Origin: a virus
IMG/VR virus record: IMGVR_UViG_648276708_000003
Length of the DNA: 64,000 nucleotides
Strand: one strand, 5' to 3'
This document shows positions 11,776 to 60,222 of the stretch, piece after piece. Both the position numbers and the translations under genes were made by a program. The notes under the pieces were generated by a model. That model was not told the DNA's origin. It ran no database searches and saw only the letters and a list, made by a program, of their open reading frames with translations. How positions within the stretch are numbered: position 1 is the stretch's first letter; the number at the start of each line of letters is the position of its first letter.

Positions 11776-12267
11776 ATGGATCAACCCCTAAACCGTAAAG
11801 CCTTTGGCGACATGCTGGCCTTTTCCGAAGGCACAAGCACACACCCATTAACCCGCATGAATGGCTATGACGTCATTGTGACAGGGCTGGGCGAAAAGCA
11901 GGGCGAAGTCTTTACCGACTTCAGCGATCACCCGTTTGCACATCGCCGTGCAAAAGAGCTTAACAGCCATGGCCTGGCATCCACCGCAGCGGGCCGTTAT
12001 CAGCAGCTTTACCGCTACTGGCCTGCCTACAAAAAACAGCTGAACCTGCCTGATTTTAGTCCTGCCTCACAAGAGCGCTTACTCGATCAGCTGCTGAAAG
12101 AGCAGGGTGCTTATGCTGACGTACTGGCCGGACGTATCCGCACGGCAATTGGTAAAACTAACGATATCTGGGCCTCACTGACCGGATCTCCGTATGGTCA
12201 GAAAACGCATGCCATTGAGACGCTACTCAATGCCTACCAGAAAGCCGGAGGTGTAATTACCGACTAA
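11776..12267 (+). CDS. Endolysin, lambda R-type lytic transglycosylase
   Basis: KAF.DMLA.SEGT, GYDVIV.G, STAAGRYQ.L, DFSP.SQ, WASL.GSPYGQ. Confidence 0.9.
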   Translation: MDQPLNRKAFGDMLAFSEGTSTHPLTRMNGYDVIVTGLGEKQGEVFTDFSDHPFAHRRAKELNSHGLASTAAGRYQQLYRYWPAYKKQLNLPDFSPASQERLLDQLLKEQGAYADVLAGRIRTAIGKTNDIWASLTGSPYGQKTHAIETLLNAYQKAGGVITD

Positions 12268-13190
12268 CAGCCGCGCCAGCCTTCAGGGATCGCATAGTCA
12301 ACTTTTGAGTAGTCGCCGCTTAACGAGTCAACATAGCGGCGGCTTTTTTGCTTCCTGCCACAAGTAGACTTTGCCCTGAACGTAGACTTCAGTGCCTGAT
12401 AGGCTTCATGCAGTACTCCGCCTTTTCGCTGAAACTCTTCTGCGCTTCGTTCGTTCTGCGCTGCTGACGATGCTGCTGCCAGTTGCTGTTGCGTGTTCTG
12501 GTAGAACCCGAACTTTTTCACGGAGGCCGGTTGTTCTTCTGCTAATTTTTCAACCTCAGAATTTAATGCCTCCCCATTTTGTATTTTTCTTTTACTGGAG
12601 AGATCTCTTACTTCTTGTTGGTCAGTTTGACTAGGGGCAACCTGTTCATTCTGACTAGGGGTTTTGTGGATAAAATCGTTTTTAAAGAATGCCTTAGCGA
12701 TAATTCTCCGGACTAAGTTCTGACGTCCGGACGGCTTCAGATTTGCCTCTTTCAGTGCATCCAGACTGGCCCGGATAAAGGCCAGTGCTTTATTAGTAAA
12801 CGTGTACTTGCTGGGTTTGCTAACGCTGTGATTTTTCTCGTCGCGCTGCTCTTCATAGCTGAGGATTCCCAGCTTAACGGCAGCACGATAAGCACGCTGA
12901 ACGGTGGAGATACTGCAACCGGCTTCTTCAGCCAGATTCCTGAGCGATTTGATGATGATGAAATCGGACGTAGAACCGGCCAGATTGCAGGCGAATTTTA
13001 AAACACGGGTAACTGACTTCGGGAGGGGGGAAAGTTCGATAATGTGGGTGAGATCAAAGCCTGTAATTCGGACAGATCTGTGCTCGTTATTTGAGCGAAA
13101 TGCGGGAAAGGTGTTGCCGGGATCGGCGCTATTAGCTACTATAGGCACAGTTGTTCTCCATGAGACAACAGGTGCAATACCTGGCGTCAT
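12264..13190 (-). CDS. repL: Lytic replication initiator RepL
   Basis: HTH (LAEEAGCSISTVQRAYRAAVKLGIL) and C-terminal IPEGWRG match recalled P1 RepL. Confidence 0.85.
   Translation of the reverse strand: MTPGIAPVVSWRTTVPIVANSADPGNTFPAFRSNNEHRSVRITGFDLTHIIELSPLPKSVTRVLKFACNLAGSTSDFIIIKSLRNLAEEAGCSISTVQRAYRAAVKLGILSYEEQRDEKNHSVSKPSKYTFTNKALAFIRASLDALKEANLKPSGRQNLVRRIIAKAFFKNDFIHKTPSQNEQVAPSQTDQQEVRDLSSKRKIQNGEALNSEVEKLAEEQPASVKKFGFYQNTQQQLAAASSAAQNERSAEEFQRKGGVLHEAYQALKSTFRAKSTCGRKQKSRRYVDSLSGDYSKVDYAIPEGWRGC
12312..12349 (+). terminator. Intrinsic terminator after endolysin
   Basis: GTCGCCGCT..AGCGGCGGC followed by T6. Confidence 0.55.
12628..12673. other. Candidate oriL within repL
   Basis: Two TGACTAGGGG repeats plus DnaA box TTATCCACA (minus strand); P1 oriL lies inside repL. 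Confidence 0.45.
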
Positions 13191-13450: not shown

Positions 13451-14452
13451 TTATCGTGTGTTAATCCACAGCAGCGGTGCTGAGTCCACGGCTGGCGGGC
13501 GCGTCTCTGGTAATGTGTGCTGGTGGGCGGTTCCGATCGGCAGCGTGGCCGTAGCATTTGTACCGATTGATTCCAGCATTGCCGCGACGATCTGCGCGTC
13601 TTCCGGCGTGTCCATCCGGCATAGTGCCGCCTGCTGGGCTTTACTTAAAAACAGCGGCATGTTAGCCAGCGCATCCTTCATAATCCGGCGGCGCGCCTTT
13701 GCAACAGTACCCGCACTCTCGATCATCAGCTGCGCGTTGCGCAGACGTTCCTCCAGCTCCAGACGCTTTCCATGCTCGATGTGAAGCGCAGATTCCATCA
13801 GCAAAGAATCCGTAGACTCCAGCACTGCCGCCTGGCCGCGCAGGGTTTCAAAATGCTGGATAATGTCGGCCGCCTGGTTCTCCGAATACCCCTTTTCAAT
13901 CAGGACCGCGTGCATAGCGTCAGCGCGTTCGCTGGCCGACTCCAGCAGCAGAGCAGGGTGATCCTGACTGATGTAGTTTGGATTGGTCACATAATCGAAG
14001 CCGTGGAAGCTGGTCACTTTGGAAATGGCGTTATCATCACCGCCAGTCGCCCACGACCAGCCACCAGCGCGAGAACGGTTCATGCCGTCAACGATGTTGC
14101 CAGGCTCAGTGTCCAGAATCTCCTGAACGTGAGTCACAATGCCGTTATCGTCCACGCTGACATCCAGCGTACGGTTAGACGGTACGTTTTCCAGCGTCAC
14201 CGGCTTCCCGTCAACCATGACAACCGCAAATTCCGGCAGATTGAGCCGCCCGGTCTTAGCGTAATAGGCGGCGCGACGTCCGTGGCCGTAATATCCGAAC
14301 ATTTCCCCCAGCTGGATTCTCTCCAGAGTTTCGGGGCTGGCGAACGTCTCGCGGACAGAGCGCAGCAGGTAGTTGCGATCATTCTGTGGAGTAAATCGAC
14401 GAATTTTATCAATCAATGAAAAACGATCCGTCACCGTGCGGAGTGCTTCCAT
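13451..14452 (-). CDS. pro: Pro, prohead processing protein
   Basis: TVTDRFSL, GYYGHGRR, GGWSWA motifs resemble P1 Pro; near prt. Confidence 0.75.
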   Translation of the reverse strand: MEALRTVTDRFSLIDKIRRFTPQNDRNYLLRSVRETFASPETLERIQLGEMFGYYGHGRRAAYYAKTGRLNLPEFAVVMVDGKPVTLENVPSNRTLDVSVDDNGIVTHVQEILDTEPGNIVDGMNRSRAGGWSWATGGDDNAISKVTSFHGFDYVTNPNYISQDHPALLLESASERADAMHAVLIEKGYSENQAADIIQHFETLRGQAAVLESTDSLLMESALHIEHGKRLELEERLRNAQLMIESAGTVAKARRRIMKDALANMPLFLSKAQQAALCRMDTPEDAQIVAAMLESIGTNATATLPIGTAHQHTLPETRPPAVDSAPLLWINTR

Positions 14453-14543: not shown

Positions 14544-14610
14544 GTCAGGGTAGCGATTCTTCGATTATCAGTGGATCTAATAACCAGTGGATAATTTCAC
14601 ATTAGAAATA

Positions 14611-14638
14611 TTGAATTTATCCGCGCCGGGGATATAGT
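14611..14638 (+). promoter_or_regulatory. Sigma70 promoter of C4 locus
   Basis: TTGAAT-16-TATAGT. Confidence 0.55.
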
Positions 14639-14745
14639 GTGCGCGCCACTGTAAAACAGTGGTCGGGATTGGAACCCCGAACGAATGTACGAGGAGGCAC
14701 TTAGTGCCTCCGGCGCTACCACGTCTGGAGTTTGCCAGATGTTTC

Positions 14746-14828
14746 AATGGTGGCGTTGGTGGGGCTACCTTCGGGTAGGCCGGTTTTCTTGTGCACCGGT
14801 AGTTCCAACCCTGTCAACGTCACCACCC
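14746..14828 (+). ncRNA. c4: C4-type antisense RNA (P1 c4 / P4 CI family)
   Basis: Closing stem GGTGGCGTTG/CAACGTCACC, CTACC-TTCG-GGTAG hairpin, GTTCCAACCC guide; target sites CGGGATTGGAACCCCG (14664-14679) and GGAGATTGGAACCTCC (14829-14844). Confidence 0.8.
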
Positions 14829-14879
14829 GGAGATTGGAACCTCCCGTTGTGACGCGCCTCAAAGCACAGGGAGCATTTC

Positions 14880-15137
14880 ATGTCTGATATCCCCGACACG
14901 CCACCCTAGGCGGAAACAGGTTTCAACCACGCCATGACAGCTATCAGCCAGACGGACAGTAATATCTGTCGTCATACCAAATGGGGCGATACACCTGTTC
15001 ATGTATTCACTGAAATAGACGCTGACAGTCAGAGGCAGTTTATTGTCATGAGCGAGTTAGGTGTACTGTCTTTTTATGATCCTACTCCTGACGACATTAT
15101 TTCAGCTGACTGGAGAGTTATTTCGCTGCTACACTGA
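14880..15137 (+). pseudogene. DUF2829/Tad2-like small protein; TAG at codon 10, or intact 67-aa product from ATG 14934
   Basis: GFNHAM.AI...ICRH.KWG...Y.PTPDDIISADW.V; RBS-ATG at 14880 is in frame with 14934. Confidence 0.55.
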
Positions 15138-15368: not shown

Positions 15369-15815
15369 ATGTTAGAGGCTAAGAAATACTATGTCTGCTT
15401 TCACCATGAAAGCGGTATTCTGATGCACCGTGAAGGCTGTAAACTTCTCCCAAAAACGCCTGAAAGCCGGATATTTATCGGCACGCTCTACACCACGCAA
15501 CAAGCAATGACTGTGGCACTGGGCCATCACAGTAGTTCTGAGCGATGCCCGGAATGTTTAAAAATCCAGAATCCTGAAGAAAAAGACTCCCGCAAAGAGC
15601 GGCTGCTTAATCTCAGTCAGAAACCTAAAAAGAGGCCTGCGCCCAAAGCAAAGAAGGCGATAGCGACGCAAGCATGCCAGCCTGTTAAGCCTGCTGCTCC
15701 ACTGATGAAACAGGCAATTGCGCGGGAGCAGGCCGGTCCGCAGCAGGTTGTGAAAATTAAAAAAGGTGTTGAGGCTGTTGCTGTGCAACATTTTGTTTAT
15801 AACTGGCCTAATTAG
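15369..15815 (+). CDS. Putative Zn-binding protein (H..C, CxxC) with Lys/Pro-rich tail
   Basis: YYV..H..GILMHREGC.LLP...RIFIG...CPEC. Confidence 0.65.
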   Translation: MLEAKKYYVCFHHESGILMHREGCKLLPKTPESRIFIGTLYTTQQAMTVALGHHSSSERCPECLKIQNPEEKDSRKERLLNLSQKPKKRPAPKAKKAIATQACQPVKPAAPLMKQAIAREQAGPQQVVKIKKGVEAVAVQHFVYNWPN

Positions 15816-16406
15816 CTGCATCCAATATCGCAAAGCAGCTTACTGAAAAGTGGCTGTCTGTAACCGCACAAAGGCTTACTCAAGTGCGGTTTTTTTTGCC
15901 TGCAATTAAGATGTTATTAAGCATAAACATAATAACCCTTAATAATAATTTTTGGTGTTAACTAAACAGGAAGCAATAATTTTAATGATCAGGGTAAAAT
16001 TACCTCTTGTTTTATTTAATGAGTTTAGGTAGGACGATAAAATGCAATGCAGTAAAATTGATTTTTACATGGCTTTTTTAGCCTGGCATGATTCTCATTA
16101 GATATACTGAATTGGCTATAACTTTCCGATGTGAAGATTGAAATTCAGGGATTTACATGCCACTAAGTGATTGCATTGTAAGCAATGCAAATGGTGATTA
16201 GGACAGGATAAATATAGAGTTCACTAAAAAATGTTTTAAAATTAAAACCAGAGTGCTAAATTTTGTTAACGCAGACGAGCTAATGTGAAAAAGTTTGATA
16301 TATAAATTTTACATAGACACGACTGCGGCTATCACGGATTATGGATAATTACGAATAGCAACAACTCTGAATGGTACTTCCATTACACGCAGCAAAAGGA
16401 TATGGC

Positions 16407-16673
16407 ATGTACAGCGCCATAAAGTTCTACGTCAGTGACCACGGTAACAGCGGGTTACTGCTGCACCGGATTGACTGTCCCCGGCTACCCGCTAAGGAAG
16501 GCAGGACATTTATTGGCAGCTGTCATTCACTGTTACAGGCACTGAGCGTGGCAAAAAGAAGTTACAAAGGGGTGATGCCGTGTCCATACTGCGCGGCACT
16601 TCCTGAGATAAATGCAGCTGAATCTGATGCGTCTGTTTTATTAAACACCGCCCGAAAGCCGCAGAAAAAATAA
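16407..16673 (+). CDS. Putative Zn-binding protein, paralogue of 15369-15815
   Basis: FYV..H...GLLLHRIDCP.LP...RTFIG...CPYC; start could be 16371. Confidence 0.65.
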   Translation: MYSAIKFYVSDHGNSGLLLHRIDCPRLPAKEGRTFIGSCHSLLQALSVAKRSYKGVMPCPYCAALPEINAAESDASVLLNTARKPQKK

Positions 16674-16816: not shown

Positions 16817-18517
16817 TCAGTTGTCGGGTGTTGTCACATAACGGGCAAATGTCACCAGCTCGTCATGCGTCCAGCTTTCCGGATCCGAACCGCCAGGCGC
16901 TGATTCATTCATCATGCTGCCATTACCGCCTTCCTCATCCTGCGCGTCCGCCTTCTTCCTGCTCTTCTCAAACTCCGCCAGCATTTTGTCGAGCGTGCCG
17001 CCGTCCATTTTCAGCTGATCGCTGAACAGGTAACGCATAAACGTGTCGTTCTCCGCCAGCTTGTTATTGGCCTGCAGCGCGTCCATAACCTGCACCATCA
17101 GGGTAATGAAGTTGGCGCGGGCGTCCAGTTCGCGGCTTTCCTCTTCCTGAATGGCGGTGTTCATGGAGTTAAACTGCACCACGTAGGGGCGGTCATTGAC
17201 CGGGTACACCTTGCCGTATTTGAACGCCAGGTGAATGTCGATCAGCCGGTAAATCATTTCCTGTGCGCCCTGGCGCAGCCACTGCGCCCGGAGTGCCGCC
17301 TGAATAGCCGTCTGTATCCAGCCGCCTTCACCCAGCCCGCCTGCCATCTGATCGGCCCAGCCCAGCATAGTCGAGTCGATACCGAGTGCGGCACACAGCT
17401 GGCGCAGGTGAAACATTACGTCCTCGATGCCGGTAATGTCAGCTGGTATCGACTGCGTGTCGATCGTAATTCCGTTCTTGCCGTCACCCATCACCGGGAT
17501 CACATGGTTCATCACGGTTGGCATAGTGTTGCCGTTCACCGCTTTTTTCTGGAGTGCTTCGCCGTGGCGCTTGAGCGTCTGCGACACGGTGCGGGTGTAA
17601 TTCGCGCCGACGACTGGATCGAGTGAGTTGGTTGTCAGGGCTATCAGGCGGTCAATTTTGGCGGCGTTGTAACGCGTTGCCTTCAGCGCATTCAGCGCGC
17701 CGACCAGATTCAGGAAAGGCTCATAGGCATGCGCCAGGAAGCTGGTACCGTAGTTCTGCGTTTCCGCAACTTCCTTATCGTCTTCCTCCGACAGCAGCGA
17801 GTAGCCGCGATTTCCGGACGTCACCGGCTGAACATTGCGCGTGGGCGTCCAGTACGGGTTTTTCATCGGGACCAGCGACCACGGCGTAGACAGCGTACGG
17901 GTGTGGGTATCAGGTGCCAGCACGTAATCGCCGCCGAAGCCCACCAGCTGATCGCCTTTGTAAAACTCCTGAATGAAGTAGGGCAGCGAGTAATAGCTGT
18001 TTTCCAGGCTGGTGATCCCCTTGCCGGTACGGGCATAGGGGCGGACATAGGAGACACCGAAAATCGCCATGGTCATAGCCAGCGACGGCAGATGCCGGTT
18101 AATCATCGCGCCGAGATCATCCTGTAGCTCTTTAGCCCGTGCCGCGCCTTCGGCGTCGGACGGATCAACCGGCACGATTGAGAACGCCAAGCCGGTTTTT
18201 TTGTCCGGCGCGAGTGCGTGGCCAATGTGGATATTCAGCGCGGCTGAGCACGTCGGACTATTAGCCATTTCCTCCAGAATCGCATAACGCTGCAGCCGGT
18301 CCAGCGGCAGCTCCGCGCCCAAGTAAAGACTGTCACCGGCAGAGGTCATTTCCCCCGCCTTTCCCTCGTTATATGCCATTGCCGCCAGCCCGGAGCGAGA
18401 GACAACCACGTTTTGCCCGTTAGTCCATGCCAGGCTTTGCGGTGCTTCAGTCGTCGCGCCCCGGAATGCCTGCCTCAGTGCGCCTAAAACAGACAATGCC
18501 TTTTTTTTAGTAGCCAA
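16817..18517 (-). CDS. prt: Portal protein Prt
   Basis: 566 aa, TTG start; motifs and divergent arrangement with darB as in P1. Confidence 0.8.
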   Translation of the reverse strand: MATKKKALSVLGALRQAFRGATTEAPQSLAWTNGQNVVVSRSGLAAMAYNEGKAGEMTSAGDSLYLGAELPLDRLQRYAILEEMANSPTCSAALNIHIGHALAPDKKTGLAFSIVPVDPSDAEGAARAKELQDDLGAMINRHLPSLAMTMAIFGVSYVRPYARTGKGITSLENSYYSLPYFIQEFYKGDQLVGFGGDYVLAPDTHTRTLSTPWSLVPMKNPYWTPTRNVQPVTSGNRGYSLLSEEDDKEVAETQNYGTSFLAHAYEPFLNLVGALNALKATRYNAAKIDRLIALTTNSLDPVVGANYTRTVSQTLKRHGEALQKKAVNGNTMPTVMNHVIPVMGDGKNGITIDTQSIPADITGIEDVMFHLRQLCAALGIDSTMLGWADQMAGGLGEGGWIQTAIQAALRAQWLRQGAQEMIYRLIDIHLAFKYGKVYPVNDRPYVVQFNSMNTAIQEEESRELDARANFITLMVQVMDALQANNKLAENDTFMRYLFSDQLKMDGGTLDKMLAEFEKSRKKADAQDEEGGNGSMMNESAPGGSDPESWTHDELVTFARYVTTPDN

Positions 18518-18596: not shown

Positions 18597-21500
18597 GTGG
18601 AAAATCCAGCAAACAGGGCGGTGCAGGAGGCGGGATCGGTTGAGGAACTGATCCGGCTGGTCATGCGCCTGCACAAACAGCGGACCGTCGTCGCGTTTGG
18701 CGTGACCAAGCGTGAAGGCGTGAGCCTGCAGCGTGAGCGCCGGAGTGCGAACGACAATGCGATCGCACTGCTTAAATCACTGCCGCAGGGCTTTGACGGC
18801 AACAAACTGACTGACGAGCAGCGCCGGGTACTGGCGGGCTACAGCGGCGAGGGCGGTCTGGAAGGAAGCGGCGGCAGTCAGTATGAGTACTACACGCCGC
18901 CATTCATGGCGGAAGGCATCTGGGATCTGTTTTCCGATTACGGCATTACCAGCGGTCACATGCTGGAGCCGTCAGCCGGTACCGGCGTTTTTCAGGAGAC
19001 AAAACCGGCTGGCGCTATGATGACGTCGGCGGAGATTTCTGACACGTCCGGACGTATCAACCAGCTGCTGCACCCGGAGGATGATGTTCGCCTGGGCGCA
19101 TTTGAGAAGCTGGCGGCATCCGTGCCGGATAACAGCTATGACCACGCTGTAGGTAACGTGCCGTTTGGCGACTCGCGCACAGGCTTTGCCGAGCTCGACC
19201 CGGCTTACCGCGATGAAACCAATGTTGGCCATTACTTTGTGATGCGCACCATCGACAAGGTGAAATTCGGCGGGTTGGTGGTGCTGGTGGTTCCTAACGG
19301 CATGACCGACGGCGGCGGCAATAACAAAAAGCTGCGCGATCGCGTCTCCCGCGTGGCGGAGTTCCTGGGCGCACACCGCATGCCGTCCGGCACGTTTGCC
19401 GAAAGCGGTACCGCAACGGTGGTGGATGTGTGGGTATTGCGCAAGCATACCGAGGCGCTGACTCAGCTGGTGCATGACAGCGATGATCAGTCTCTTGAGG
19501 CGGCAAGCGTACTGTGGCCAACGTTCATCCGGGGTAAGTGGTTTGAAACCGAAGGCCGTCGCTTTGTTCACGGTGAAACTGAGCGATCTGACTTCAATAA
19601 TATTCTGGTGGTCAAAAAAGATGGCCAGCTGACCAATGAGGCCATGAAGGCCGCACTGTCACGCCGCTTTGACAGCCGCATTGACTGGGATCGGCTGGGT
19701 ACGCCTGCCGCCGTCTGGCAGTCGCCGGTTGAAGGTGATAAGCGCCTCATGGCTGGCGTATGGCACACCTATGACGGCATCCGGTTTATCAAAGACGCCA
19801 CCACGGCATCGAGCGGGATTGATGCGAAGCGGTTCGGCGCGGCCACGTTTGGCGATCTCCAGACAAAAACACGCACCATTAACGGCATGCTGTCGCTCAA
19901 TAGCCGCGAACTGTATGCCGCCAGCGTCGAATACCCACAGCTGTTTGACGATCGCACCCATGCTGCGATCCGTTTCGCCATGCAGCAGAAACCGGGCCAC
20001 CGCTGGCGCGTTATGCGTGCCTCGATCATCGGTTTGCGTATCAATGACGCGCTGAATACACAGATGCTGGGCAGCGACGCCAGCGGCATCATTGCCGACG
20101 CTGCCCGTCTGGTAAGCGAAGAGGTGGGCCAGTACGGCACGCCGAAAGGCCTGAAACTGGCGGGGCTGTCTGACGCCAGCGCGAAAGGCTGGCTGAGTTT
20201 TCAGGCCAACGTGAGCCGTGAGGGCGATCTGTCCGCGCTGCTGAACGGCACCATCGACCGCAGCGAAGCCGTGGCCGTCGATTTCGCCAGCCCGGAGCAG
20301 GTGGTATCACATCTTTTCAGCGACGTTGATCTGGTTCCGGTTGCGCTGGCCGCCTTCCGCGCCGCGTATACCGGCCAGCTGCCGGAGGATGACGATGCGC
20401 TGCTGGCGCACCTGGCGACCTTCCCGGAGATCGCCCTCGATGGCAACGGCAATATCATGCCATTGGCCCGCGCCACCAGCGGGAACGTTCGCGGCAAAGT
20501 CTCCCGCCTGGCGGGGCTGATTGACGACGCGCCGGATGGCCCGGTAAAGGCGAACTATATCCGACAGCTGGAAGCCATTAACGAGAAGCGCAAGCACACG
20601 CCGATTGAAGACATTACGGTAAACCTCAATGCCCGCTGGCTGGACCGTCGCCTGATCAAAGAGTTTCTGATCGAGCAGGGCTTTGATGACTTCAAATACA
20701 CGCAGGATCTGGCAAACGACAATGGCTATCTGACCGCAGAAGACAACTACGCGGGCAAGGACGGCGTATTCTCTGGCTATCAGGTTCGATCTGTCACCAG
20801 CAAAGGCGGCGTGACCGAGTTCAAGCGCGCCAGCTACAAAGACGGCTTCTACAACCAGCTGGAAAATTACCTCAACGGCGTGAAGCCACGCGGGGTAAAT
20901 GCCAATGTGTACCTGAAGCGAATCAGTGAGCTGGAGTCGCATTTCAATGACTGGCTTCGCACTCATCCGGACGTGGAAAACGTTGTCAGTGATTACAACG
21001 ACGCCTTTAACGGCTACGTTCCGTTTGAGCACTCTTCTTCCTCGCTGCAGCTGCAGCAGATCAGCGGCAAACGTCTCCCGCTGAGCTACCAGAATGCCGA
21101 AGTCCGGCGCCTGTCAGAAGACGGCCGCGGCATCATGGGCTTTGGCACAGGCCTGGGTAAAACCACGACGGCGCTGGCGCTGGAAGCCTACAACTACGAG
21201 GTAGGGCGCAGTAAGCGAACCGTCTACGTCGTACCGAAAGCCGTCCTCCAGAACTGGTATCACGAAGCTCAGAGTTTCTACAGTGCCGAAGCCTTCCAGA
21301 ACATGCTGTTTGTCGGCCTGGATGAAGTGCGCGGCGAAGATGGCCAGATCATGCAGGCCCAGGAGCGCGACGAGAACAACGAGCCGAAACTGGACAAAGA
21401 CGGCCAGCCGGTAATGCGTAACGTGGTGAAAGAGTCCGCGGCCGCAACCGTGCTTGAGCGCATGAACATGATCCCGGTCTCCAACTACCGCGCCGTGATA

Positions 21501-24500
21501 ATGACCAAAGAGCAGTTTGGCGATATCCCGATGCGTCCGGAGACGATTGAGGAAAACTCCAATCAGGCAGTCTTTAACCAGATTGAGAATGGCCGCACGG
21601 ACCTGATGAAGTCCACGCACCGCGCCGCCACGTCCCGTAACAAACTCCGCGACAAAGCCGCCGATACCGGCACGAAGAAAAAGAGCCAGATCCCGTACTT
21701 TGAGGATATGCACTTTGACAGCGTGATCGCAGACGAAGGGCATAACTACCGCAACTCGCACAGCGCCGGACGTGAAGCAGGCCAGCTGGCCTACCTGCCT
21801 AATCCGTCCGTCTCTAAGATTGCCCGCGATATGGCCGTGAAAAGCCAGTACATGATGAAGAAGTACAACGGCCGCGGCGTCGTTATGCTGACCGCAACAC
21901 CGCTGGTTAACTCCCCGATTGACGCCTTTAACATGCTGTCACACGTCGTGTCGCTGGATGAGTGGAAGGCGATGGGGATACTGACGCCGGATGACTTTGT
22001 GCGTGTATTCGGGGAAACCGACACCGTTACCGTCCAGAAGATTTCAGGCGAACTGGAAGACAAGCAGGGGCTGGTGGGCTTCAAAAACCTTGATGGTCTG
22101 CGCGGCATCTTCCATCGCTGGACGACGCTTAAATCTGCTGCTGACGTGAAAGACAGCGTGAAGATCCCAGGCCTCGACGAGAAAACCGTTGGCGTGCCGA
22201 TGACGCGGGACCAGAAGGAGCTTTATGAAGAGCTCCGCTTGCGCGCCAGCCGTATCGGGCAAAAGGAAATCGTAGAGGACAATGGCGATGGTCATATTTC
22301 CATTGTGCAAAACGAAGACGATTTCATTTTCTCTGTTATCCGCGACATGGATAAGGTGGTTATCGATCCGGACCTGTACCGCTCCGCTATTACGTTCCGA
22401 TTCCGTGAAGAGGACGTAGAACTGGCGAAACAGGTGGCGCGTTCGCTGCCGGGTAAAGCCGGTGGCCAGCTGCTTGCCGGTGATGATGAAGAAACCGCTG
22501 AGGATGCGGAAACCGGCCTTACCGATACGCGCACCAGCAAGGTAGTCAAAACCACCCTGAAGGATCGCGGCGGCGTCGTGGAGCTGGTGGTGAGCGACAC
22601 GCTGGAGCAGCAGGTACTGGATGCGATCGCCGCTGCCGATATCAGCATGGAAAACGTCTCGCACCCGGTACCGCCGAAGTATGCCGCGCTGATTGAAAAC
22701 CTGAAGGCAGGCCTGCCAGACGGTAAGCAGATCATTTTCATGGATGAAAAGTCCCAGCACAACAAGCTGCGCCGCATCATCGCCAGCGCTCTGGGCCTGG
22801 CGGAGCAGCAGATAGGCATCATCAACGCCACAACAGTCAGCAAAGCATCTGGCGTGAAGTTGAAGCCCGTGAAGAAACCAGTTGAGCCGGTGGAAAAAGC
22901 GGACGGCAGTTTCAAGGACGGTGCCTGGGACAAGTATTATCAGGATCTGGCGCGCTATGAGGATTATCAGGCCGCAATGAGTGACGCCTCGCTGGCCGGT
23001 ATGGAAGGGATCGCCGCCGACTACAACGAAGGCCGCACGCCAATCATCATCTGCAACAAAAAGGCCGAAGTGGGGATTAACCTGCACAAAGGCACCGCCG
23101 ATTCACACCATCTGACACTCCCCTGGACGCCAGCCAGTATCGACCAGCGTAACGGACGCGGCGCCCGCGTGGGCTCCGAGCGCGACACCATGCGCGTGCA
23201 TTACTACTGTGGCAAAGGGTCATTTGACGAGTTCCGCTTGGAGACGCTGCAGCGTAAGAAAAACTGGATCAACGACGTCATGAAATCTGACGTTTCCAGC
23301 ATCAGAAACGGTGATGTGGAGTCCAAAGAAGAGCAGAGCCTGCTGCTGGCCGCTAACCCGGAAGAGCGCCGCGCCCGCGTGGATGCACAGCTGAAAGCGA
23401 AGCGTGAAGCGGACCGCCAGCAGGCCGAGCGTGAAGCCGCTGCCGCGCTGGATATCTACCTGAAAGCAAGTGTTGCGGCTGCTACCCCCGTAGAAGTGCT
23501 GGAAGACAACATTACCAAACTGTCTGCTGCCTTTGATGCGATCAACGGCGAGATTGATGGCTATCGCGAGGATGTCACTGTCGCTGAAGCCGCTTATAAC
23601 CGCGAAGTTGAGCAGTATGGCAAACGGTCAGCAGATCAGTGGCGCGGTCAGGACCGTCGCGTAGCGCGTGCTGCACTCCGTGATGGCCTGGCGAAGCAGA
23701 AGAAGCTGGAGCAGGAGCTGGGTGGCGCACGCAAGGCGCTGACTCGCTCCAAAAGTGCAGCCAGCACCATCAAGCGCTCCCGCGGGGAAGTAGAGCGCGC
23801 AATCAAGTCCGGCGTACTGGAAGTAGATCCGGACGTGCTGCGCGCCCCGGAGCAGTACATGAAACTGCCTGATGGCCAGCTGCTGCGAATTGGCGCGACC
23901 TATGAAATCTGGCTCAACGATGACCGCGAAAAAAAGGGCGTATTTCAGATCCGCAAATTCTTCCCGGAGAAAAATACGGTTGAGGTTGAACTGATCCACA
24001 AGCCGCTGCGCTGCTATACCGGTCCGAATATCGGTGGTTTTGCTGAAATGCCGTCTGCGCTGGTGAGCGACCGCGTGGATATCACCAGTGACCAGGCAAA
24101 AGCGCTCCAGACAGCAGCGAAGGGCATCGATCCTGTAAACCTGGCGGACACGCTGAGCCGTGATGACTTCTATGCGGCCATTCACGCGGGCGTCCTGAAT
24201 GTGCGCACAGACGGATGGCTGTACCGTGACAGTGACGGCAGGCTGAAACTGGCTTACCTCAGCGGCACGATCAGCGCCAGCGAAGAGCGTCCGGCTGAAA
24301 CGTGGCTGTACCCGGACCACAGCGACGAGCAGCTGAAGCGCGAGCTTTATCAGTACAGCGTGGATAACAACATCTACAGCGCGCAGGGCTTCTTTAAGGC
24401 GATGTTTGGCCGCAACTACGACATGGCATTGCAGGCTTACGGGAAGCAGGCGGGCATGGCGGACGTGGTTAAAGTCTTTAAGCGGCTGGTGGTGGAGTTT

Positions 24501-25466
24501 GAAGCAAACGACTCCAGAAATCGGACAATGACCGGCGCAACAGATGAAGAAGCACATGCCGCTTTCCTGGGCGCAGGGCAGGACCGTTACTACTGGAGCA
24601 ATTCAATCAGCCTTCGTCAGTTCCGTAACGGCATGGAAGAGTTCTCCAACCGTAACGAGTATGAAGTGATATTCGATCAGCTGCGTAACGAGATGGCCGA
24701 CGGCAAGATGCAGGCTATCAGGTCACTGACAGAGCAGTATGCCGCCGCCGCATTGCAGCAGTTCCGCCAGATGAGCGAGAGCGACAGCCAGGCCGGTATT
24801 GCTGTGCTGCTGGTAAAGTCGAAATTTGATGCACAATCCGACGTTACCCGACCGGCTACCGTTACCGAATCGCCTGCAGCAGTTTATCTGCGTGCCGGCG
24901 TTTCACTGGGCGCGCTCGATGAAGCTGCGATCAGTGCCGAAACGTTTACCTCATCCTCCGCCGTTATGAGCCGGTTAAATGAGATTTATGCGTGGCTGGA
25001 GCAGATGGAGAAGGGTGGATACCGGGATTACGCCGTAACGTGGGATGACTACAAAGGGATGATTATCGGCAAGCTGTCGCCTGATGCTGTGAAGGCCCGC
25101 CGCGATGAGGCTCAAAGACTCGCAGCAGCAGCGGCAACGACCGTGCGCACCGCACAGGTACAGAAGCAGTCCGATGGCTTCCAGGTCATGAAAAACGAGC
25201 AGGATCTGGTGGCTTCGCGCAAGTGGAAGAACCGCACTTTCAAAATCGACTTCCCGGCTGGTGGCGCTTATGTCCTGACGGACACCAGTGATAAGCCGGT
25301 GCTTAAGCGCAAAGCGGTTCGTGATCTCATCAAAGAGAAGTACGGCGCGAAATTCTGGAATTTTGAAGAAGATCCGGTAGCCGGAAACGAGTTCACACAA
25401 GCCGCCTGGCTTATCCCTTCCTCCCACGATCTCGATGCGTTACGCAACGATATTGTAAACGCATAA
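18597..25466 (+). CDS. darB: DarB antirestriction protein (N6-adenine MTase plus SNF2-type helicase)
   Basis: YEYYTP, LEPSAGTG, GNVPFG MTase motifs; GTGLGKT Walker A, DEGH, LTATP, QRNGRGAR helicase motifs; 2289 aa. Confidence 0.92.
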   Translation: MENPANRAVQEAGSVEELIRLVMRLHKQRTVVAFGVTKREGVSLQRERRSANDNAIALLKSLPQGFDGNKLTDEQRRVLAGYSGEGGLEGSGGSQYEYYTPPFMAEGIWDLFSDYGITSGHMLEPSAGTGVFQETKPAGAMMTSAEISDTSGRINQLLHPEDDVRLGAFEKLAASVPDNSYDHAVGNVPFGDSRTGFAELDPAYRDETNVGHYFVMRTIDKVKFGGLVVLVVPNGMTDGGGNNKKLRDRVSRVAEFLGAHRMPSGTFAESGTATVVDVWVLRKHTEALTQLVHDSDDQSLEAASVLWPTFIRGKWFETEGRRFVHGETERSDFNNILVVKKDGQLTNEAMKAALSRRFDSRIDWDRLGTPAAVWQSPVEGDKRLMAGVWHTYDGIRFIKDATTASSGIDAKRFGAATFGDLQTKTRTINGMLSLNSRELYAASVEYPQLFDDRTHAAIRFAMQQKPGHRWRVMRASIIGLRINDALNTQMLGSDASGIIADAARLVSEEVGQYGTPKGLKLAGLSDASAKGWLSFQANVSREGDLSALLNGTIDRSEAVAVDFASPEQVVSHLFSDVDLVPVALAAFRAAYTGQLPEDDDALLAHLATFPEIALDGNGNIMPLARATSGNVRGKVSRLAGLIDDAPDGPVKANYIRQLEAINEKRKHTPIEDITVNLNARWLDRRLIKEFLIEQGFDDFKYTQDLANDNGYLTAEDNYAGKDGVFSGYQVRSVTSKGGVTEFKRASYKDGFYNQLENYLNGVKPRGVNANVYLKRISELESHFNDWLRTHPDVENVVSDYNDAFNGYVPFEHSSSSLQLQQISGKRLPLSYQNAEVRRLSEDGRGIMGFGTGLGKTTTALALEAYNYEVGRSKRTVYVVPKAVLQNWYHEAQSFYSAEAFQNMLFVGLDEVRGEDGQIMQAQERDENNEPKLDKDGQPVMRNVVKESAAATVLERMNMIPVSNYRAVIMTKEQFGDIPMRPETIEENSNQAVFNQIENGRTDLMKSTHRAATSRNKLRDKAADTGTKKKSQIPYFEDMHFDSVIADEGHNYRNSHSAGREAGQLAYLPNPSVSKIARDMAVKSQYMMKKYNGRGVVMLTATPLVNSPIDAFNMLSHVVSLDEWKAMGILTPDDFVRVFGETDTVTVQKISGELEDKQGLVGFKNLDGLRGIFHRWTTLKSAADVKDSVKIPGLDEKTVGVPMTRDQKELYEELRLRASRIGQKEIVEDNGDGHISIVQNEDDFIFSVIRDMDKVVIDPDLYRSAITFRFREEDVELAKQVARSLPGKAGGQLLAGDDEETAEDAETGLTDTRTSKVVKTTLKDRGGVVELVVSDTLEQQVLDAIAAADISMENVSHPVPPKYAALIENLKAGLPDGKQIIFMDEKSQHNKLRRIIASALGLAEQQIGIINATTVSKASGVKLKPVKKPVEPVEKADGSFKDGAWDKYYQDLARYEDYQAAMSDASLAGMEGIAADYNEGRTPIIICNKKAEVGINLHKGTADSHHLTLPWTPASIDQRNGRGARVGSERDTMRVHYYCGKGSFDEFRLETLQRKKNWINDVMKSDVSSIRNGDVESKEEQSLLLAANPEERRARVDAQLKAKREADRQQAEREAAAALDIYLKASVAAATPVEVLEDNITKLSAAFDAINGEIDGYREDVTVAEAAYNREVEQYGKRSADQWRGQDRRVARAALRDGLAKQKKLEQELGGARKALTRSKSAASTIKRSRGEVERAIKSGVLEVDPDVLRAPEQYMKLPDGQLLRIGATYEIWLNDDREKKGVFQIRKFFPEKNTVEVELIHKPLRCYTGPNIGGFAEMPSALVSDRVDITSDQAKALQTAAKGIDPVNLADTLSRDDFYAAIHAGVLNVRTDGWLYRDSDGRLKLAYLSGTISASEERPAETWLYPDHSDEQLKRELYQYSVDNNIYSAQGFFKAMFGRNYDMALQAYGKQAGMADVVKVFKRLVVEFEANDSRNRTMTGATDEEAHAAFLGAGQDRYYWSNSISLRQFRNGMEEFSNRNEYEVIFDQLRNEMADGKMQAIRSLTEQYAAAALQQFRQMSESDSQAGIAVLLVKSKFDAQSDVTRPATVTESPAAVYLRAGVSLGALDEAAISAETFTSSSAVMSRLNEIYAWLEQMEKGGYRDYAVTWDDYKGMIIGKLSPDAVKARRDEAQRLAAAAATTVRTAQVQKQSDGFQVMKNEQDLVASRKWKNRTFKIDFPAGGAYVLTDTSDKPVLKRKAVRDLIKEKYGAKFWNFEEDPVAGNEFTQAAWLIPSSHDLDALRNDIVNA

Positions 25467-27261: not shown

Positions 27262-27780
27262 GTGCTTTTTGACGCGCAGTTTTTTACCGGATGCCCCACC
27301 TTTGAGCAGTATGCGCGCCGTCAAAAGACGCGCGACGGCTTGGGCCGTGGGCTTTCGGTTTTTGCCGACATGGCTATGGACGTCGGCATTTTCAAAGTAC
27401 CGAAGCAGGAGCTTATGTCGCGCAGCGGCATGAGTAACCGCCAGCTGAACTATTTCGGCGGCGTGAAGGGGATCAGTTACATCTTGAGAAAATCATTAAC
27501 AGAAGGACGCGGACGCATGACTACGGCACAGATCGAAGGTTTGAGCAAAATTGGAATCGGTGCCATTACGTGCAGCTATGACCGCGCCTTGCTGAAGATG
27601 AAAGAGGATCCGGAATTGCTGATGCGCCGGGAAGCGTGGGAGGCGGGTTACTTTGTGTCGCTTGAGCAGGAGCATGAAGGCTGTGACGTGCTGATACTGA
27701 CCCGACCGGACGGCGACGTTGAGATACACGAACTGAGCATTAACGATATGCGCGTCAGCGACTGGGTAGTTATCAGCTGA
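27262..27780 (+). CDS. Hypothetical protein, C-terminal DUF2829/Tad2-like domain
   Basis: SYDRAL.KMK...LMRREAW..G.F and LS.NDMR.SDW.V. Confidence 0.55.
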   Translation: MLFDAQFFTGCPTFEQYARRQKTRDGLGRGLSVFADMAMDVGIFKVPKQELMSRSGMSNRQLNYFGGVKGISYILRKSLTEGRGRMTTAQIEGLSKIGIGAITCSYDRALLKMKEDPELLMRREAWEAGYFVSLEQEHEGCDVLILTRPDGDVEIHELSINDMRVSDWVVIS

Positions 27781-32174: not shown

Positions 32175-32759
32175 ATGATGACCGCTCAACAGTTAAACGC
32201 AACCATCGCCATGATTGCAGACGCACAAGCCGACTATGCAGGCGATTACATGGCGCTGCTGACCGTGTTCGAACGCCTCGGATATGCCATTACAGAGACG
32301 TCTGAGACCAAAACTGACGGATACGCAGCCGTTATCAGCAAAAGCGGCCTGACAATGACCGGTTTTGGCGAAACCCTGAACCACGCCGCCTGTGCCGCGC
32401 TGATTAAGCTGAATGATCTTATCCTGCGTAACGAAGCGATGATTGATACCGGCGAACTGAGTTTCAGGCAGGAGCAAGCACCGCTGGCCGTCGCGCAGCT
32501 GTGGCTGTCAGAGGGCTGCAAAGTGGCGCGGGCAGTATGGGGGAAGGGCGTTCATCTGCGCCTCACCAGAGGGCTGACACGCGCAGCGCTGAATGGATCA
32601 GACATGTATGGCGTACCGGCCCGCTACTTTGATTGCAGCCAGGATGTGGCCGTAACGCAGATGCCCCAGCTTTTGCTCATTGATACCGAAAAGCTAACGG
32701 TTTCCGACTGGGCGCCAGCCTCAACGGATCTTCTCGCAAGCGACTGGAGGCTGGTGTAG
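32175..32759 (+). CDS. ABA-sandwich-like N-terminus fused to DUF2829/Tad2-like domain
   Basis: L.EGCKVAR.VWGKGVHL..W.PASTDLLASDW.LV. Confidence 0.7.
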   Translation: MMTAQQLNATIAMIADAQADYAGDYMALLTVFERLGYAITETSETKTDGYAAVISKSGLTMTGFGETLNHAACAALIKLNDLILRNEAMIDTGELSFRQEQAPLAVAQLWLSEGCKVARAVWGKGVHLRLTRGLTRAALNGSDMYGVPARYFDCSQDVAVTQMPQLLLIDTEKLTVSDWAPASTDLLASDWRLV

Positions 32760-35604: not shown

Positions 35605-35735
35605 TTAATTTTATCCAGTGGTTAATTTCATACTGCGAACGAGCAATCAAAGTACCACATATTCCGGTTTTGTCCATTAGTAAGGGACCAAAACGGCGCG
35701 TTAGCTGCGCTAGTGATCATTAATGTGATCACTGC

Positions 35736-42308: not shown

Positions 42309-42415
42309 AGAAAAAGGGAGCCATTGCTGGCTCCCTTATCCCGTTCGTTCTGGTTCAAACGTTAACCACTGGATGTAGGTATCCGAAATAAACCAATGGC
42401 AAGGATAACAGAACA

Positions 42416-60125: not shown

Positions 60126-60222
60126 GATCTATTAGGATCTATTTATGATCTTTATATGATCGATTTATATGATCTATCCAGTGGATAAGTGGATAACTGA
60201 TTGTCCAGCTCAGTTATCCACA
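60126..60222. other. oriR: five GATC sites in AT-rich tract plus DnaA boxes
   Basis: GATC at 60126, 60136, 60147, 60158, 60171; tandem TTATCCACT (minus) and TTATCCACA (60214). Confidence 0.88.

Follow-up and report, generated by a model that had tools for sequence, protein, structure and literature searches.

In phage P1 the antisense RNA C4 silences the icd-ant operon in the lysogen (PMC8198154). The immI regions of P1 and P7 are composed of the P51 promoters, the targets a1 and b1, the c4 gene, the targets a2 and b2, and the genes icd and ant1/2, and phage D6 possesses two canonical modules consisting of C4, icd, and a gene for a Rha/Roi-type antirepressor. The Tad2 proteins (family PF11195, also known as DUF2829) comprise sponges for Thoeris/CBASS signals such as SPO1 gp34.65, ModTad2, HgmTad2/AcrIIA7, and SptTad2. 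A literature search retrieved no characterised Tad2 gene under the control of an antisense RNA, no paper combining Tad2 with C4 antisense control, and nothing related for DUF2829 in combination with phage-plasmids. Here a locus is analysed in which a C4 RNA is followed by the gene of a divergent Tad2-like protein that is interrupted in this copy by an amber codon. The locus is situated in a stretch of 64,000 nucleotides (IMG/VR virus record IMGVR_UViG_648276708_000003), in the following referred to as the window, which derives from a P1/D6-type phage-plasmid of Pantoea.

The C4 switch with a Tad2-fold cargo is a variant of the known C4 system, and the D6-type operons are a related form of it. 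As a whole, the locus is probably best explained as a reduced immI-type operon that carries a Tad2-fold cargo gene and is broken in this copy. Little is known about the ways in which phages schedule the expression of anti-defence genes and silence them in the lysogenic state; in this plasmid family a compact and well-understood device, the C4 antisense RNA of P1, is wired to a Tad2-fold gene, and natural specificity variants as well as null alleles are at hand as controls.

The C4 module and its conservation

The original prediction, which was made from the nucleotide sequence of the window, had described a complete C4 architecture, and all of its parts were recovered (Table 1): the promoter, the upstream targets a1 and b1, the C4 RNA, and the downstream targets b2 and a2, the latter covering the Shine-Dalgarno sequence GGGAG (14869-14873) located 7 nucleotides 5' of the ATG at 14880. 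In a scan with the Rfam models the C4 RNA matched family RF01695 over model positions 1-87 of 87 with 83.5 bits (gathering score 45; E = 6e-15), and this was the sole Rfam match within the window. The minimum-free-energy fold of the RNA is the structure of this family. The upstream segment at 14632-14683 scored 40 bits with the family c4-a1b1 (RF03163), which is below the respective gathering score of 46.7. The single-stranded segment b' pairs with b1 and with b2 at 7/7 positions each, the a' loop pairs with a2 at 10/10 positions (seven Watson-Crick and three G-U pairs), and the same loop can be aligned with a1 over 10-13 contiguous paired positions including G-U pairs.

Pairing was assessed in 20 distinct haplotypes by counting pairs on the single-stranded a' and b' segments; as these haplotypes are related, no probability value is attached to the counts. 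Between a' and a2, standard pairs were found in 98.5% of the cells, compared with 42-60% when the partner was slid by 1-3 columns, and compensatory double changes were present at two of the ten positions (U-A to C-G and G-C to A-U). The pairings of b' with b2 and b1 were nearly invariant across the haplotypes. At least three matched types of loop and target could be distinguished, namely UUUCUUGUGC with GCACA(A/G)GGAG (type I), CUCCUCGUAC with GUACGAGGAG (type II), and UUCCUUGUAC with GUACAGGGA, and additional matched pairs occur in the more distant relatives L076-L080. Since loop and target covary, the sequences argue that the antisense control exerted by C4 is functional. Whole-molecule duplex energies between C4 and its flanks did not discriminate, since shuffled targets reached similar values as soon as C4 could unfold, and pair counts were used instead.

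In the window, a' and a2 are of type I and a1 is of type II, which still pairs with the loop via G-U pairs. This mixture of types indicates that the C4 module of the window is therefore recombinant. A different recombinant module was observed in genome G001 (loci L009/L035), in which a segment of approximately 110 nucleotides around the 3' end of C4 combines a type II loop with a type I a2 (two mismatches) and a b2 that carries a C>G change; judged from these mismatches, this module may be beyond the control of its own C4. Duplication of heteroimmune modules is neatly illustrated by the chromosomal locus L018 (1335-2540) of a Pantoea genome, where two tandem a1b1/isrK-C4 modules are located approximately 1 kb apart. 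They differ in b' (GUUCCAA vs GUGCAAA), and each has a matching b2 and precedes an ORF (open reading frame) resembling KilA-N/Rha.

Two direct repeats precede the promoter, and the second of them forms a sequence (TAACCAGTGGATA), located 18 nucleotides upstream of the -35 element, that agrees at 12 of 13 positions with the 13-bp palindrome TATCCAGTGGATA. With up to two mismatches allowed, this palindrome gave seven strand-hits at four sites of the window versus 0.79 expected, which makes it a candidate for the operator bound by the repressor of the plasmid.

The relatives examined comprised five PLSDB plasmids, the genomes G001, G011, G014, G021, and G057, the virus record G002, and another 31 loci taken from GTDB genomes and IMG/VR. 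All of them share the order pro, C4 with the Tad2-like ORF, optional cargo, and prt, and the complete Pantoea plasmids contain exactly one C4 each. Five distant homologues of the protein, detected by a profile search in 1.8 billion proteins, are each encoded behind a C4 too. The first ORF behind C4 is the Tad2-like gene and not icd. Neither icd nor an antirepressor gene was found 3' of C4, and the ORFs up to prt include no member of an antirepressor, Rha, KilA, or Bro family; in two related plasmids the portal gene follows straight after the Tad2-like ORF, and the complete plasmid pFC61912-B_D has no annotated antirepressor. A scan of the relatives with PF03374 (ANT) gave no matches, but it was uninformative because the D6 control gave none either. 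That C4 is followed by a Tad2-fold gene in place of icd and ant, as had been proposed for the window, thus holds for the whole clade, and C4 with a Tad2-fold cargo is a clade-wide property of Pantoea and related phage-plasmids.

With the immI regions of P1 and P7 the module shares the RNA family, the order of decoy targets, antisense RNA, and mRNA targets, the location of a target over the ribosome-binding site of the first ORF, the covarying types of loop and target known from P1/P7 heteroimmunity, and a candidate repressor operator at the promoter. It differs from them by the lack of icd and antirepressor genes, the Tad2-fold gene being the first and only conserved ORF, and by its position between pro and prt instead of beside kilA-repL, in a single copy per complete plasmid.

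The Tad2-like protein and the D6-type operons

The nearest intact allele, P0001, codes for a protein of 85 amino acids that is 96% identical to the window copy. It matches PF11195 with 27.7 bits (cut-off 25) and carries the NCBI name "Thoeris anti-defense Tad2 family protein". PF11195 was matched by all ten family members tested (E <= 0.01), and the subfamily is small and divergent, comprising 24 cluster representatives at E <= 0.001 in the profile search. No useful matches were obtained for the protein by tblastn against the phage collection or with NCBIfam, nor for P0001 with PHROGs. An AlphaFold2 model based on 21 homologues had a mean predicted local distance difference test score (pLDDT) of 87 and consists of disordered residues 1-11, a helix formed by residues 15-23, and a subsequent sheet. 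When this model was compared with the PDB by Foldseek, the best 24 matches were all Tad2/AcrIIA7 chains (template modelling score 0.65-0.82, root-mean-square deviation approximately 2 Å). The independent aligner VIA yielded a Z-score of 10.4 to ModTad2 and AcrIIA7 (deviation 2.0-2.1 Å over 69 residues), with the next fold at 4.6, and the family profile recognised PDB sequences with E-values from 3.6e-4 to 7e-4, among them ModTad2 (3.6e-4) and SPO1 Tad2 (4.8e-4). The structural match to PF11195/Tad2, on which the original prediction depended, is clear, and the modelled fold of the intact protein is that of Tad2.

The features shared with the Tad2 sponges, which are compared here by sequence and model, are helix alpha1 followed by the antiparallel sheet (deviation approximately 2 Å over approximately 70 residues), the Arg-x-x-Trp and C-terminal Asp-Trp motifs, and an aromatic residue, Ser/Thr, and Asp at three ligand-contact positions. 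The sequence identity, in contrast, amounts to 12-16% only, the scores are at or below the Pfam cut-off, and the Pantoea subfamily has a conserved Cys and a conserved His of its own. In SPO1 Tad2, glycocyclic ADP-ribose (gcADPR) is contacted by W25, N26, W73, S76, T78, and D79 (10.1101/2023.05.01.538930). In an alignment based on hidden Markov models W25 and D79 are kept as W35 and D72, respectively, W73 corresponds to Tyr/Phe66, and S76 to Thr/Ser69. Most pairs of intact alleles had a ratio of nonsynonymous to synonymous substitution rates (dN/dS) of approximately 0.06-0.13, according to which the intact gene is under strong purifying selection. One variant of altered length was noticed in L034/L041 (Pantoea conspicua and an IMG/VR contig), where TGC replaces the stop codon TGA, which lengthens the ORF from 85 to 108 codons.

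The nearest profile relatives of the Pantoea family were found in phage D6. Comparison by hhalign gave a probability of 91% (E = 9e-7) with the C-terminus of D6_82, a Rha-type antirepressor with a fused Tad2-like domain, and of 72% (E = 3.5e-5) with orf17, a gene of 65 amino acids coupled behind the antirepressor D6_18. For the canonical DUF2829 domain, which the window encodes in a 194-amino-acid protein, the probability was only 23%. Besides these profile similarities, the Pantoea and D6 domains have in common the CRRxxW motif, the C-terminal DW motif, and their location downstream of a C4 RNA only. In the D6 operons, however, the domain comes last, behind icd and a Rha/Roi-type antirepressor to which it is translationally coupled or fused, whereas in Pantoea it follows C4 directly, has a short leader fused to it, lacks icd and ant, and is approximately 10 residues longer in its middle part. 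By this comparison the Pantoea layout is probably a D6-type operon after the loss of icd and the antirepressor gene and not the result of foreign-gene capture. Thus, the term "rewired" used in the original prediction stands with regard to the cargo, which is not icd-ant; the capture of a new gene is not supported, and "reduced" is the more probable description given the Tad2-like ends of the C4-icd-ant operons of D6. At their N-terminus the Pantoea proteins have 10-20 disordered residues that fall outside the Pfam domain. Of these, only the first 5-12 are similar to the start of the icd-like ORFs encoded behind chromosomal C4 copies of Pantoea (M-x-[DT]-I-P..., HPxF), which hints at an icd remnant, with a similarity too short for proof.

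The plasmid encodes three Tad2-fold domains in total. A 172-amino-acid ORF located after a VRR-NUC-like gene (27262-27780, plus strand) contains a C-terminal second domain of the same subfamily, which matched the family profile at positions 12-81 with an E-value of 8.5e-9 (hmmsearch) and scored 21.1 bits with PF11195, below the cut-off. The 194-amino-acid ORF mentioned above lies upstream of lpa (32175-32759, plus strand) and is intact; its residues 110-194 form a canonical Tad2-like domain (PF11195, 39.4 bits).

The amber allele and the competing readings

The ribosome-binding site and ATG at 14880, the TAG at codon 10, and the continuation of the same frame as a DUF2829-like sequence are all present in the window as originally described. 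The mutated base, T14907, is part of CTAGG (14906-14910), where intact alleles have CCAGG, and the C>T change is the only difference from P0001 in codon 10. This CCAGG, at nucleotides 27-31, is the sole CCWGG site of the 258-nucleotide ORF, and a change at its inner C turns CAG (Gln10) into TAG. Among 32 loci (31 fetched loci and the window) the 85-codon ORF was intact in 26, with CAG, CCG, or CCT as codon 10; TAG was present in three (the window, L038, and L039) and a 1-nucleotide deletion in another three (L035, which equals G001, L044, and L045). T at 14907 also recurred in contigs from three further sequencing runs, each belonging to a separate study (one root metagenome, one food metagenome, and one isolate); within the ORF they differ from the window at 14974 only. 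The frameshift allele is independent and has lost a G of the same CCAGG site, so that its 18-codon leader ends in a TGA that overlaps the next ATG (ATGA). In lacI, amber hotspots were reportedly located by Coulondre et al. in 1978 at Dcm sites, where CCAGG becomes CTAGG by deamination of 5-methylcytosine. The change observed here is the same, CAG to TAG at the inner C of CCAGG; the second lesion differs in being a 1-nucleotide deletion, which is not the classical outcome. In 4/4 Pantoea chromosomes examined a C5-methyltransferase gene adjoins vsr, and the plasmids themselves encode a C5-methyltransferase domain. The occurrence of two lesions at the same place is explained by a mutational hotspot, which makes it unnecessary to invoke selection for a split gene. 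The amber thus reads as a recent C>T mutation at a cytosine-methylation hotspot and not as a programmed part of the switch.

The window copy differs from the nearest intact allele by the replacements R32H (CAT, 14973-14975), T46I, and S60L. Between the two TAG haplotypes there are four nonsynonymous changes (R32H, T46I, S60L, and Q51H) and no synonymous change, a pattern which, small as the count is, relaxed constraint would predict given the dN/dS of approximately 0.1 in the family. R32 is conserved in at least 90% of the family and is aligned with a conserved Arg of SPO1 Tad2. Translation from Met19 would yield a product devoid of residues 13-18, the start of helix alpha1, by which in SPO1 Tad2 the tetramer forming the ligand pockets is closed (10.1101/2023.05.01.538930). 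Taken by its sequence, the window copy is likely to be a null or strongly weakened allele. Of the two possibilities that had been offered for the stop, recent decay is therefore the better reading, with CAG>TAG at a Dcm hotspot followed by seemingly unconstrained changes. A conserved, programmed coupler was not borne out: the TAG is shared with L038 and L039 and is absent from the 26 intact loci. Two further candidates were rejected. The 67-amino-acid database protein P0008 is no third split allele, because its contig starts 42 nucleotides upstream and no stop codon interrupts the frame up to the end of the contig. Selection of the frameshift in G001 by the mismatch between its type II loop and type I a2 is dismissed as a general cause, because L044 and L045 share the frameshift and have a matching type I loop.

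Read as a reduced immI-type operon that is broken in this copy, the locus would work as follows. The promoter with its candidate upstream operator would transcribe the a1/b1 decoys, C4, and then the mRNA. In the lysogen processed C4, expected to be released from its precursor by RNase P as an RNA of roughly 77 nucleotides that acts in trans, would, by analogy with P1, pair with b2 and a2 and thereby block ribosome binding, and the first ORF would be translated only when new transcripts outrun C4, which would be the case soon after infection or on induction. The cargo would be an 85-codon protein of the divergent Tad2/DUF2829 fold, made up of a short N-terminal leader and a domain related to the tail of the D6 operons, and its most likely role would be that of a sponge for a nucleotide-derived immune signal during the infection window. 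The idea of the original prediction, an anti-defence burst by such a sponge that is silent in lysogens, can be held tentatively, at slightly less than an even chance. In the present copy a deamination-type C>T change at the sole Dcm site would have converted Gln10 into amber; the allele itself is genuine and circulates, but it has drifted since. At best, a little N-terminally clipped product of 67 amino acids might be formed by re-initiation 24 nucleotides downstream of the stop.

Several points weigh against this reading. C4 repression and the timing of expression in this plasmid are drawn from the analogy with P1, and one RNA run (X24) contained essentially no reads on the stretch, while other RNA runs shared only about 9% of the words with it. 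The window copy itself scored below the cut-off of PF11195, with 20.3 bits for the 67-amino-acid ORF and 23.2 bits when the amber was read through (match from profile position 3). Among the gcADPR contacts, N26 is replaced by an invariant Gly36 and T78 by Asp/Glu71; the pocket appears to be partly conserved, and the ligand, or even a sponge activity, is predicted at most. A Dcm-type methylation of the CCAGG site in the host or plasmid is plausible, with Dcm specificity assumed, and the substitution count behind the inferred drift is low. The amber and frameshift alleles each occur in several samples, both with the Met19 frame open. Moreover, a split design exists elsewhere: in L079 (718-1037) and L080 (2384-2710) a leader ORF of 23-26 codons, which starts from the C4-controlled Shine-Dalgarno sequence, overlaps a Tad2-like ORF of 69 amino acids that has its own AAGGAG.

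Of the competing explanations the most probable, albeit still a rather unlikely one, assigns another role to the cargo. The Tad2-fold protein would be a part or effector of the lysis-lysogeny (immI) switch, inherited from an antirepressor operon, and not a sponge; it could for example be a small-molecule- or protein-binding module that usually acts together with the antirepressor, and C4 would have been kept in the Pantoea clade because the protein itself must be off in lysogens. This would agree with the profile comparisons, in which the domain fused in D6_82 and the gene behind D6_18 were nearer than the canonical DUF2829 domain of the window, with the presence of a C4 in front of every homologue examined, with the diversification of C4 and target into matched specificity types as in P1/P7 heteroimmunity, with the existence of two other Tad2-fold domains on the plasmid, one of which is canonical, and with the invariant Gly at the position of N26. 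However, the gcADPR contacts are largely kept or conservatively replaced (W35, Y/F66, T/S69, and D72), which fits a nucleotide-type pocket, the silencing of a sponge in lysogens is biologically sensible too, no protein is known to interact with the Tad2-like protein, and null alleles survive in nature. Whether the subfamily soaks up immune signals or reports to the lysis-lysogeny switch is a question that links the locus to the Tad2-like tails of the D6-type antirepressor operons. It is also conceivable, if doubtful, that the C4 switch of this clade, relieved of its antirepressor, has the Tad2-fold protein as its only output and that the matched C4/target types correspond to heteroimmunity groups, in which the C4 of a resident plasmid would act in trans to silence the Tad2-like gene whenever a relative of matching type enters. 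If this were true, an antisense RNA would decide which kin deploy their Tad2-like gene, be it a sponge or a signal-sensing part of the switch, and this would be the first demonstration that an antisense RNA acting in trans times and polices a gene of anti-defence type.

A second alternative concerns the stop codon, which might be tolerated or even useful. The 9-codon mini-ORF would then act as a C4-gated leader, and re-initiation at ATG 14934 would give a working 67-amino-acid protein at a lower dose. Both the TAG and the 1-nucleotide deletion (G001/L035/L044/L045) are located 5' of Met19 and leave the 67-codon frame open, both lesion alleles were recovered from several samples, and the ATGA overlap of stop and start in the frameshift allele is a classical coupling geometry. 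In addition, L079 and L080 possess a genuine leader ORF overlapping the Tad2-like ORF, and natural forms of 68-69 amino acids exist. Nevertheless, this explanation is improbable. Both lesions fall into a single CCWGG site, and the hotspot accounts for their position without selection. The stop is located 24 nucleotides before ATG 14934 with no Shine-Dalgarno sequence, whereas L079 and L080 have AAGGAG there, and the natural short forms begin six residues before Met19 and keep the whole helix alpha1. The four nonsynonymous changes without a synonymous one, including R32H at a near-invariant Arg, contrast with the low dN/dS of the family, and the fused 85-codon ORF is the form found in most loci.

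Very improbable, finally, is an origin of the TAG in faulty assembly or sequencing, or its read-through by a suppressor tRNA with normal production of the 85-amino-acid protein: the TAG is a single-base difference from intact alleles, but T14907 recurs in the contigs of the three other runs, none of which is the source of the window as all differ at 14974, and in the two IMG/VR contigs L038 and L039, so that an error is rejected as its origin, and the window contains no tRNA genes. Compared with the switch itself, the amber is of lesser weight; it provides a clear case, found in nature, of a nonsense hotspot at a Dcm site of a phage-plasmid.

Neighbourhood of the module

The closest public relatives of the window are non-mobilizable plasmids of 87-95 kb from Pantoea eucalypti, P. 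agglomerans, and Pantoea sp., together with IMG/VR contigs of approximately 90 kb. Genome G001, the nearest one, has 39% of the sampled 31-letter words of the window in common, and no useful matches were obtained by megablast against E. coli genomes. The portal protein shares 63% identity with that of phage D6 and approximately 50% with P1 Prt, and in D6 pro adjoins prt. The coordinates of the module and of its neighbours are compiled in Table 1.

Table 1. Positions of the C4 module, the Tad2-like gene, and neighbouring features in the window.
Feature	Position	Strand	Remarks
P1-type RepL gene	12264-13190		PF26868 on orthologue
pro, head-processing protease gene	13451-14452	-	Left border of the conserved slot; annotated as head processing protein in syntenic Pantoea plasmids
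Two direct repeats	14565-14593	+	ATTATCAGTGGAT / ATAACCAGTGGAT; nearly invariant in relatives
Sites of palindrome TATCCAGTGGATA	14581-14593, 35612-35624, 42363-42375, 60175-60187		First site just 5' of the C4 promoter
Sigma-70-like promoter of the C4 operon	14611-14638	+	TTGAAT-16 nt-TATAGT; kept in all aligned relatives
Upstream decoy targets	14632-14698	+	b1 UUGGAAC, 14669-14675; a1 GUACGAGGAG, 14687-14696
C4 antisense RNA	14743-14830	+	a' loop UUUCUUGUGC, 14785-14794; b' single strand GUUCCAA, 14802-14808
Downstream mRNA targets	14834-14873	+	b2, 14834-14840; a2, 14864-14873
Tad2-like gene, first nine codons and amber	14880-14909	+	ATG at 14880; TAG at 14907-14909 (codon 10)
Remaining 67-codon frame	14934-15137	+	ATG at 14934 (Met19 of the intact protein); TGA at 15135-15137; without own Shine-Dalgarno sequence
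orf148	15369-15815	+	Variable cargo 3' of the Tad2-like gene, same strand; no Pfam or PHROG family
orf100	16371-16673	+	Variable cargo, paralogue of orf148; phrog_4298, function unassigned
prt, portal gene	16817-18517	-	Right border of the slot; identity to D6 portal and P1 Prt
Gene of a 2289-amino-acid SNF2/DarB-like protein	18597-25466		

Between the Tad2-like gene and prt the window carries orf148, which possibly is co-transcribed with the Tad2-like gene, and orf100. The two encoded proteins share 37% identity and a common C..LP ... CP.C pattern, and orf148 is missing from the plasmids pFC61912-B_D and pPA-MXU-90. Judged by its variable content, the slot behind the C4 operon resembles a hotspot for cargo genes. 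In L076 (2750-5165) the same slot is filled by the genes of an AAA_21 ATPase and an HNH protein, which form a Septu-like pair.

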